From a plasmid, in the NCBI RefSeq assembly GCF_988243305.1, contig NZ_OZ547138.1: a stretch of 64,000 bases of DNA; one strand, 5' to 3'. Below, in pieces: positions 21,001 through 24,000 of this stretch. Numbering within the stretch: the first letter of the stretch is position 1; each line of letters opens with the position of its first letter. Position numbers: made by a program.

Positions 21001-24000
21001 AAACAGAATAATTCAAATATTGCAGTTAAGCTTCCGCCAACTGGATTTGTAAAGAAGTCTTTTTGCCAGAATTCTTTCCCTGTAAACCTTATTACCATTT
21101 TCTGTATTATCCTCATTGAAAAAGGAAAAGTAATGGCACTGATAATGCATCCGATGAACGCATAAAACATTCTTGCATTTTCCTGGTTATCTTTCCATCC
21201 CAGATAAAAAACTGTAAGAATAATGAGGATTGGTATCAGGCTTTTCAGTAAATACTTTACAGATATATCCAGTTTCATCTGGTTTCTCCTTTATTGTTAT
21301 CGTGTACCGGTGCGTGATAACATAATCACAGCATGATAATAATAATCAATAACAATAAGCTGTGTCACGTTTACATCATGGAACGGAGGTGCTCCTGTGA
21401 CCTTTGAGCAGAAAAAAGGGCACTGTTGCAAAGTTAGCGATGAGGCAGCCTTTTGTCTTATTCAAAGGCCTTACATTTCAAAAACTCTGCTTACCAGGCG
21501 CATTTCGCCCAGGGGATCACCATAATAAAATGCTGAGGCCTGGCCTTTGCGTAGTGCACGCATCACCTCAATACCTTTGATGGTGGCGTAAGCCGTCTTC
21601 ATGGATTTAAATCCCAGCGTGGCGTTGATTATCCGTTTCAGTTTGCCATGATCGCATTCAATCACGTTGTTCCGGTACTTAATCTGTCGGTGTTCAACGT
21701 CAGACGGGCACCGGCCTTCGCGTTTGAGCAGAGCAAGCGCGCGACCATAGGCGGGCGCTTTATCCGTGTTGATGAATCGTGGGATCTGCCACTTCTTCAC
21801 GTTGTTGAGGATTTTACCCAGAAACCGGTATGCAGCTTTGCTGTTACGACGGGAGGAGAGATAAAAATCGACAGTGCGGCCCCGGCTGTCGACGGCCCGG
21901 TACAGATACGCCCAGCGGCCATTGACCTTCACGTAGGTTTCATCCATGTGCCACGGGCAAAGATCGGAAGGGTTACGCCAGTACCAGCGCAGCCGTTTTT
22001 CCATTTCAGGCGCATAACGCTGAACCCAGCGGTAAATCGTGGAGTGATCGACATTCACTCCGCGTTCAGCCAGCATCTCCTGCAGCTCACGGTAACTGAT
22101 GCCGTATTTGCAGTACCAGCGTACGGCCCACAGAATGATGTCACGCTGAAAATGCCGGCCTTTGAATGGGTTCATGTGCAGCTCCATCAGCAAAAGGGGA
22201 TGATAAGTTTATCACCACCGACTATTTGCAACAGTGCCGACTGGTTTCATATCACCATGAGGCTGAAGGTGCTCATGCAATATGCCCGGGGACTGCTGGT
22301 ATCAGATCCAGAGGCGGGGAGTAAAGTTCTGGCACTGCTGGAAAGCATTAAACGATATCTCTGGCATGGCAATGTTGTCGCTGCGCTGGAACATATTGAT
22401 AATTGCGTTATGTATTGCGATGACCCTGAACTCAGCTATCCTAGCCTGAAATCCCTGCAAAAACATCTGGATGAAATGTATACCTACATCCGGAATAATA
22501 AGATGATGATCCCAAACTACGGCGAAATGCGTCGGTACGGAGAGCCGGTATCAACCGCGTTTGTGGAATCCACGATCAATGAAGTGATCGCCAGACGAAT
22601 GGCCAAAAAGCAGCAGATGCAGTGGAGCAGAAAAGGGGCTCATTATTTGTTACAGACCCGGACCGCCGTTTTGAATAACGAACTGCAGGATAAATTTGTC
22701 TGCTGGTATCCGGGTTTTCAAAGTGACGGGAAGGGACCAGCGATGGCAGCATAGCTCACGCTGCCCCAATATTTTTTATGCTCTCGGTCGTATGGAAGCT
22801 GGACCGCCTCGGTCGTGATCTTCGTCATCTCATTAATACAGTGCACGACCTGACCGCGAGGGGGACCGGTCTGAAAGTGCTGACCGGTCACGGGGCGACT
22901 ATCGACACAACAACGGCCGCTGGCAAGCTTGTCTTCGGTATCTTTGCCGCACTGGCGGAGTTTGAGCGCGAACTGATTGCTGAAAGAACGACTGCAGGTC
23001 TGGCATCAGCAAGAGCCCGTGGGCGGAACGGCGGCCGACCTTATAAAATGACGCCAGTCAAACTGCGACTGGCAATGGCATCAATGGGACAATCAGAAAC
23101 AAAGGTCAGTACGCTATGCCAGGAACTTGGGATAACCCGGCAAACTTTGTACAGGCATATTTCCCCTGTTGGTCAACTGCGGGCGGACGGGATCAAGCTG
23201 CTCAACCGTGGATAATTTGAACGGACGGAAAAATCTGGGGTTCCGGCGTAGTACCCCTATCACCTCCACATTTTTGCAACAGTGCCTTATAAATGGCAGC
23301 CTTATGTTTACTTGCCAAGATGGGCTACCATATGATGTTTTATACTGAGCAATATTAATATTATCTTTAATGGAAAAATTAAGCCCACTAAGTGACCCAC
23401 TGCTATATGGCTCTATTGTGAAGACGCCTGAGGGTAAAAATTTATACATGGTTGTCCCTATGTCTATTATTGCAAGGTTGACAATATTATTCGTTTTATA
23501 AATTTGAGCGTTTAAAATCACACATCAAAGCAATTAGTCAGGATAAACAACAATACCCAGTGCTTCGAGAATCAGTTCTTGCTGCCAGGCTGCAATTTTG
23601 ATACCTGATGTATCGACTTTGCGGGGATCTAAACCGTCGAGTTCGGCGTGGCATAAATTGGCACCCTGTAGGCTAAATTGCCCCCAGACATCTTCGGAAA
23701 AAACACCTCGACTTAAGTCTGACTCTTTCAGTGATGCACCCGCTAGGTTCGTTCCTATCCAGCGATTTTCAAACAACTCACATTTTTCTAAACAAACCCT
23801 CTCCATATTGGCATAGGAAAGATTACATCCAGAAATAAATGCTGAGCAAAAGTACATACGATTACTCACTTGATGGGCAAAGTTTGTTCGGGAAAAGTTG
23901 GCACCTTTTAAATCACACGCACGGAACTCTATACCGTAGCAATTGGCATTACTGAAGTTTGCCATCGCAAGTTGGCATTGTTGGAAACTTGCATCACGAA

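Follow-up and report, generated by a model that had tools for sequence, protein, structure and literature searches.

IS26, an ISKpn19 remnant and a truncated resolvase gene beside qnrS1: a probable three-layer scar of mobile-element activity

The window analyzed here is a stretch of 64,000 nucleotides from a plasmid (contig NZ_OZ547138.1, assembly GCF_988243305.1), in which a complete IS26, the 3′ part of ISKpn19, the 3′ part of a serine resolvase gene, a Tn3-family terminal inverted repeat (IR), a short IS26-like relic and an intact qnrS1 gene follow one another from left to right. IS26 occupies positions 21419–22238 on the minus strand and is 820 bp long, as delimited by its perfect 14-bp terminal IRs (GGCACTGTTGCAAA) at 21419–21432 (plus strand) and 22225–22238 (minus strand). 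Its transposase gene, tnp26 (annotated CDS at about 21471–22175, minus strand), encodes a protein matching the Pfam family DDE_Tnp_IS240 (PF13610; E = 6e-49), and plasmids with identical sequence carry the label ‘IS6-like element IS26 family transposase’ at this site. The annotated IS26 of an IncN plasmid (L011) is 99.6–100% identical to it. The 8-mers that flank this copy differ (GAAAAAAG versus GACTGGTT), and no 8-bp target-site duplication is present; an adjacent deletion (see below) is expected to leave none, so that its absence is no argument against the identity of the element. A 368-aa open reading frame (ORF) at 21648–22754 (plus strand) is an artefact, which begins on the antisense strand of the IS26 transposase gene, passes the boundary of IS26 and continues in frame into the remnant of the ISKpn19 transposase gene.

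Immediately to the left of IS26, positions 19033–21278 carry the gene for colicin Ia (626 aa) and that for its immunity protein (115 aa, minus strand). These genes fit the backbone of a plasmid of the IncI complex, and the matching plasmids type as IncI-gamma/K1. Elsewhere in the window, a second IS26 is found at 54803–55622, in inverted orientation and with three differences from the first. The two copies were considered as the ends of a compound transposon, and this was rejected because their 8-bp flanks do not match. An IS6100-like element of 880 bp is located at 58855–59734 (ends GGCTCTGTTGCAAA).

The transposase-like frame that the first-pass annotation described as cut by IS26 belongs to ISKpn19, a member of the ISKra4 family. 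IS26 ends at 22238, and positions 22239–22785 (547 bp, plus strand) are 100% identical to annotated ISKpn19 copies, including positions 6001–6547 of the Shigella flexneri plasmid NZ_CP020344.1 (L001). In that plasmid the complete element extends over 3697–6547 (2851 bp; a copy of equal length is present in comparison sequence L010) and is bounded by 26-bp imperfect IRs (GAGAGCATGAAAAACCTCGGGGCAGC and GCTGCCCCAATATTTTTTATGCTCTC, 85% match). The sequence in the window corresponds to nt 2305–2851 of the element: position 22239 is nt 2305 and falls in transposase codon 293, so that the first 292 residues are gone and codons 293–463 of 463 remain (22239–22754, plus strand). This frame matches the NCBIfam model transpos_ISKra4 (NF033572; E = 3.1e-45, 155 bits, profile positions 288–422 of 422), to which the full-length 463-aa transposase of L001 scores 380.7 bits. 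With 155 bits, the fragment falls short of the whole-protein cutoff of 205 bits solely on account of its incomplete length. Pfam has no match to the fragment or to the full-length transposase, and the family is settled by NCBIfam. In a megablast search of 22239–23533 against PLSDB, 2276 plasmids were matched, at least 1158 of them with at least 80% query coverage at an identity of at least 99%, and the matching records annotate the frame as “ISKra4-like element ISKpn19 family transposase.”

The start proposed for this frame (22239) was accurate, and its end lies not at 22757 but at the stop codon TAG at 22752–22754. The inverted repeat that had been anticipated near 22758–22777 exists as well; it is the right IR (IRR) of ISKpn19 (GCTGCCCCAATATTTTTTATGCTCTC, identified from the repeat pair in L001), is located more exactly at 22760–22785 (plus strand) and has a single exact occurrence in the whole window. 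The left IR (IRL) and nt 1–2304 are absent from the window, so the element is a remnant and, with a transposase that is shortened at its N-terminus and with one terminal repeat missing, is not expected to work. Besides the 463-aa transposase, the complete ISKpn19 of L001 contains an upstream gene of the pRiA4b ORF-3 family and a gene for a 190-aa serine recombinase; ISKpn19 is therefore not a one-gene insertion sequence and resembles a small transposon carrying its own resolvase.

The truncated serine resolvase gene (ΔtnpR/ΔtniR) at 22786–23215 (plus strand) comprises nt 186–615 of a gene of 615 nt and encodes residues 63–204 of a 204-aa protein, followed by the stop codon. The true resolvase homology begins at 22786/22787, at Val63 of the 204-aa protein, and these residues differ at one position from the intact protein encoded by L011. 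When a 204-aa relative (P0007, 95% identical) was compared with the window by tblastn, only residues 63–204 aligned, and no N-terminal resolvase coding sequence was detected anywhere in the window. In the protein alignment, residues 1–62 are missing, including the N-terminal R-M/V-S9 motif, whereas the arginines of “DRLGRD” and the helix-turn-helix (HTH) are kept. In serine recombinases, the R-M/V-S motif holds the catalytic serine (the nucleophile near residue 9–10). The Pfam Resolvase profile (PF00239) is covered only at positions 68–144 of 145, compared with 2–144 in the intact protein. A complete N-terminal catalytic domain of a serine resolvase is thus lacking, as the first-pass annotation had held, and the gene is a pseudogene remnant that, in this state, is not expected to work. 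In the C-terminal part, HTH_7/HTH_29-type matches are found at ORF residues 98–129, with scores under the gathering thresholds.

This remnant is contained in a 145-aa ORF at 22778–23215 (plus strand; beginning MLSVVWKLDRLGRD), the ATG of which lies inside the ISKpn19 IRR. Its first two and two-thirds codons (22778–22785: ATG, then “LS”) are ISKpn19 sequence; as the IRR ends at 22785, the start codon and “LS” belong to the insertion sequence. The ORF begins seven codons before the LDRLGRD motif and not inside it, as had been proposed, and although the transposase frame does end just upstream of it, the gap is 23 bp (22755–22777) and not 20 bp. An alternative upstream start that would restore the catalytic domain does not exist, because an in-frame stop is located 18 codons upstream, with no ATG, GTG or TTG between, and because the window contains no sequence for that domain. 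The 145-aa ORF is a junction artefact, namely a resolvase pseudogene remnant to which the ISKpn19 IR has fortuitously supplied a start codon.

The 38-bp terminal IR (GGGGTACTACGCCGGAACCCCAGATTTTTCCGTCCGTT; 23220–23257, minus strand, outer end at 23257) begins 5 bp after the resolvase stop codon. It agrees at 32–35 of 38 positions with the IRs that bound small tnpA (PF01526)–res–tnpR (204 aa) units in L004, a Salmonella contig, and in L008, from Serratia symbiotica; in L008 the IR is likewise placed directly after tnpR. It is thus a right end of the Tn3 family: a 38-bp IR beginning with GGGG, beside tnpR, that matches the IRs of a DDE_Tnp_Tn3 element. Neither a cognate tnpA nor a second IR adjoins it in the window. 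In L010 and L011, the same res–resolvase segment is located downstream of tniA–tniB–tniQ (Tn5053-family genes), which indicates that the module is shared between Tn5053-type and Tn3-type transposons; the ancestral transposon may be a hybrid of the Tn5053 and Tn3 types. As the Tn3-type IR directly follows the resolvase gene and its outer end faces qnrS1, qnrS1 lies outside that transposon. This reading differs from the published model of Tn6292, which puts qnrS1 inside the transposon (PMC5027574).

On its outer side, the Tn3-type IR is abutted by a 29-bp relic of an IS26-like (IS6-family) end (23258–23286, minus strand), which is identical to the right end of IS26 at 24 of 29 positions and includes an exact 14-bp IS26 IR at 23273–23286. 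A second IS26-like IR, opposite-facing and located beyond qnrS1 at 24350–24363, was rejected as a candidate, its two mismatches being at chance level in the window. Taken at face value, the two sites look as if qnrS1 had once lain between two IS6-family copies, with the same reservation about the second site. The quinolone-resistance gene qnrS1 itself (23534–24190, minus strand) is intact; its 218-aa pentapeptide-repeat ORF is annotated as QnrS1, with 100% identity, in the matching plasmids. Beyond qnrS1, positions 24499–25640 carry a remnant of an IS3-family element with disrupted orfA and orfB (HTH_Tnp_1, HTH_21 and partial rve), which is called ΔISEcl2 in the literature. This remnant is cut by a 5′-truncated Tn3-type transposase gene (849 aa, PF01526) at 25643–28192 (minus strand). 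In matching plasmids, blaCTX-M-15 is found a few kilobases further on.

For the parent allele of the resolvase gene, the 5′ part from L010 was joined to the window sequence and the composite was searched in PLSDB. At least 80% of this reconstructed intact res–resolvase–IR sequence is covered by 913 PLSDB records, many of them at 99.6–99.9% identity. The intact resolvase (204 aa, WP_014839983.1) is encoded beside qnrS1, in unchanged position, in the IncN plasmid L011 and in an IncX3 plasmid of the pOXA-181 type (L012). In L011 the gene extends over 7191–7805 (615 nt), and position 22786 of the window corresponds to its nt 186; the alignment of window positions 22786–24642 with L011 positions 7376–9232 contains two mismatches in 1857 bp (99.9% identity). 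The window and the intact res–resolvase–IR–qnrS1 arrangement of the IncX3 pOXA-181-type and IncN plasmids have the resolvase allele, the 38-bp IR, the IS26-like relic and qnrS1 in common. The two differ upstream, where the intact arrangement has tniQ (L011) or an inverted ISKpn19 located upstream of res (L012) as its neighbor and a complete resolvase gene, unlike the window. The intact ancestral allele is thus directly observed, as are the coordinates at which the window departs from it.

The terminus of the ISKpn19 IRR is fused exactly to nt 186 of the resolvase gene, and this fusion recurs unchanged in at least 1158 plasmids. The simplest reading of the junction, on the basis of these comparisons of sequence, would be a single ancestral transposition of ISKpn19 into the resolvase gene. 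The starting point would have been a gene for a 204-aa resolvase of the tnpR/tniR type, followed by the 38-bp Tn3-family repeat and located next to qnrS1, an arrangement that is still found in many plasmids. Transposition of ISKpn19 would have joined its right IR to nt 186 and removed the N-terminal 62 residues, and the 5′ part of the gene would have been separated or lost. A search with a chimeric query revealed no reciprocal junction, in which the missing 5′ 185 nt of the resolvase gene would be joined, at the complementary point, to the left IR of ISKpn19; it found only L010, in which the left IR abuts resolvase nt 291 and the right IR abuts an unrelated Tn3 IR. The left flanks of complete ISKpn19 copies consist of unrelated DNA, namely a Tn21-type IR (L001), other sequence (L002) and an IS26 fragment (the Escherichia coli plasmid L013, described below). 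Because no 5′ half of the resolvase gene lies beside these complete copies, at least one further event must have separated the two halves of the gene. The complete copies also have no clear target-site duplication; in L012, the flanks match at 7 of 8 positions (CCAGATCG and CAAGATCG) and are otherwise non-contiguous. A simple insertion into tnpR is not directly demonstrable, and a more complex ISKpn19-mediated rearrangement could have given rise to the junction.

The left boundary of the ISKpn19 remnant can be compared with a plasmid in which the adjacent DNA is still present. Over 12 kb, two E. coli plasmids of 126 kb (NZ_CP145695.1 and NZ_CP145691.1) match the window with 100% identity, and in sister IncI-gamma/K1 plasmids (that of E. 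coli O169:H41, NZ_CP024226.1, here L013, and plasmids of Shigella sonnei, with NZ_CP099781/CP099768 among the undeleted forms) the same 12 kb is present in two pieces. L013 carries this IS26 in the corresponding place, next to the immunity gene for colicin Ia, and is otherwise collinear with the window; immediately to the right of IS26, it contains a stretch of 4896 bp (3740–8635) that is absent from the window. Besides nt 1–2304 of ISKpn19, this stretch contains a fragment of IS26 and two genes, one hypothetical and one of the DUF4238 type. The sister plasmid with this DNA in place is an observed sequence; by parsimony, we infer that the 4896-bp difference is a deletion in the window and not a gain in L013. 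The missing stretch is exactly adjacent to the IS26 end, as is characteristic of adjacent deletions. In IS26-mediated adjacent deletion, the insertion sequence stays in place, the DNA as far as the new target site is removed and no flanking duplication is formed, as is the case here in comparison with L013. The mechanism is read here from its end-products.

In the deletion proposed here, an IncI-gamma/K1 plasmid with IS26 beside the colicin Ia immunity gene would have lost the adjacent 4896 bp, the likely mechanism being an intramolecular replicative transposition of IS26 into ISKpn19 between nt 2304 and 2305. This would have removed two backbone or cargo genes, together with the fragment of IS26 and nt 1–2304 of ISKpn19, and would have left IS26 fused to ISKpn19 transposase codon 293 without a target duplication. 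An alternative is that IS26 simply inserted into ISKpn19 and that the upstream part of ISKpn19 was lost later in a separate event. In favor of this, IS26 inserts nearly at random, and its IR terminus borders nt 2305 of ISKpn19 cleanly. However, the 8-bp duplication that an insertion would leave is absent, and neither on the left side of IS26 nor in any other part of the window is there further ISKpn19 sequence, IRL included. In L013, the same IS26 occupies the same backbone site at a distance of 4.9 kb from a complete ISKpn19, and the DNA missing from the window adjoins exactly the IS26 end. Insertion followed by separate loss is thus quite unlikely, and adjacent deletion is the preferred reading. 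The first-pass annotation had proposed that an element entered tnpR and that IS26 then cut this element; the two-layer order holds, and comparison with L013 replaces the insertion of IS26 by a deletion of the DNA next to it. Its minimum of two sequential events is likewise upheld, since the IRR adjoins nt 186 of a gene that is intact in the same qnrS1 context elsewhere and nt 1–2304 of ISKpn19 were subsequently removed by IS26; with the separation of the resolvase halves, the events number at least three rather than two. Their order and mechanism are what we infer.

A different view of the 145-aa ORF would regard it as a functional shortened resolvase, which has kept the dimerization helix and the HTH and would act as a res-site-binding protein or regulator. 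The frame is uninterrupted from its ATG onward and still encodes the C-terminal HTH, and the protein is called at 145 aa in a cluster with 291 members, labeled ‘DNA-invertase’ in some records. However, most records processed by PGAP leave the ORF without a gene annotation, the region of the catalytic serine is missing, no Shine–Dalgarno-like sequence precedes the ATG at 22778 (CCCCAATATTTTTTATG), and no promoter-like site was found on the plus strand at 22500–22778. Recent clonal spread together with qnrS1 accounts for the perfect conservation of the ORF. A function of this kind is therefore extremely unlikely, and the ORF is better regarded as a pseudogene remnant with a borrowed start codon. 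A related speculation concerns the behavior of ISKpn19, the ends of which occur, in different plasmids, at three points of the res–resolvase segment that lie no more than about 450 bp apart: at nt 186 (the window), at nt 291 (L010, 5091–5380) and, inverted, upstream of res (L012, 2850–5700). ISKpn19 must therefore have struck this small region more than once. That it is biased toward res–resolvase modules or, alternatively, that the IR-supplied ATG yields an expressed, DNA-binding-only resolvase fragment is very unlikely. The idea of such a ‘res-hunter’ was unsupported: the flanks in L001, L002 and L013 and on the right side in L010 are unrelated to resolvases, and no clear target preference is apparent.

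The structure to which the segment belongs has already been described as the ΔISEcl2–qnrS1–ΔtnpR–ISKpn19 platform of enterobacterial plasmids, in derivatives of Tn6396 and Tn6292 (PMC5034289; PMC6735626; PMC5027574). Tn6396 is an ISKpn19 composite transposon with qnrS1–ΔtnpR and 7-bp direct repeats, of which terminally truncated derivatives have been noted (PMC6735626); derivatives of Tn6292 have also been described (PMC5027574; PMC5868456). The window shares with this platform the junction between the ISKpn19 IRR and the Δresolvase, qnrS1 and the IS3-family remnant beyond it. It differs in that ISKpn19 is cut by IS26 to its last 547 bp, a variant present in about a dozen plasmids, and this IS26-trimmed variant is a minor derivative of the described structure. 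In PLSDB, the IS26/ΔISKpn19 junction is found in only about 12–13 plasmids (E. coli, Shigella and E. ruysiae). One plasmid, pYLPI7c, has the same junction with a different left flank, which would reflect either further IS26 events or movement of the unit together with IS26.

Taken together, the region very probably represents a three-layer scar left by mobile elements and composed of non-functional remnants that are carried along with qnrS1. The segment is a lineage marker, with little importance beyond such bookkeeping. The junction of ISKpn19 with the Δresolvase marks one of the two main contexts of qnrS1, the other being that in which the resolvase is kept intact. The rarer junction of IS26 with ΔISKpn19 (nt 2305) distinguishes a small clade of plasmids of the IncI-gamma/K1 type, from E. 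coli and Shigella, that carry qnrS1 together with blaCTX-M-15. In addition, the locus provides a clean textbook case of IS26-adjacent deletion, for which the undeleted progenitor is still present in the databases.
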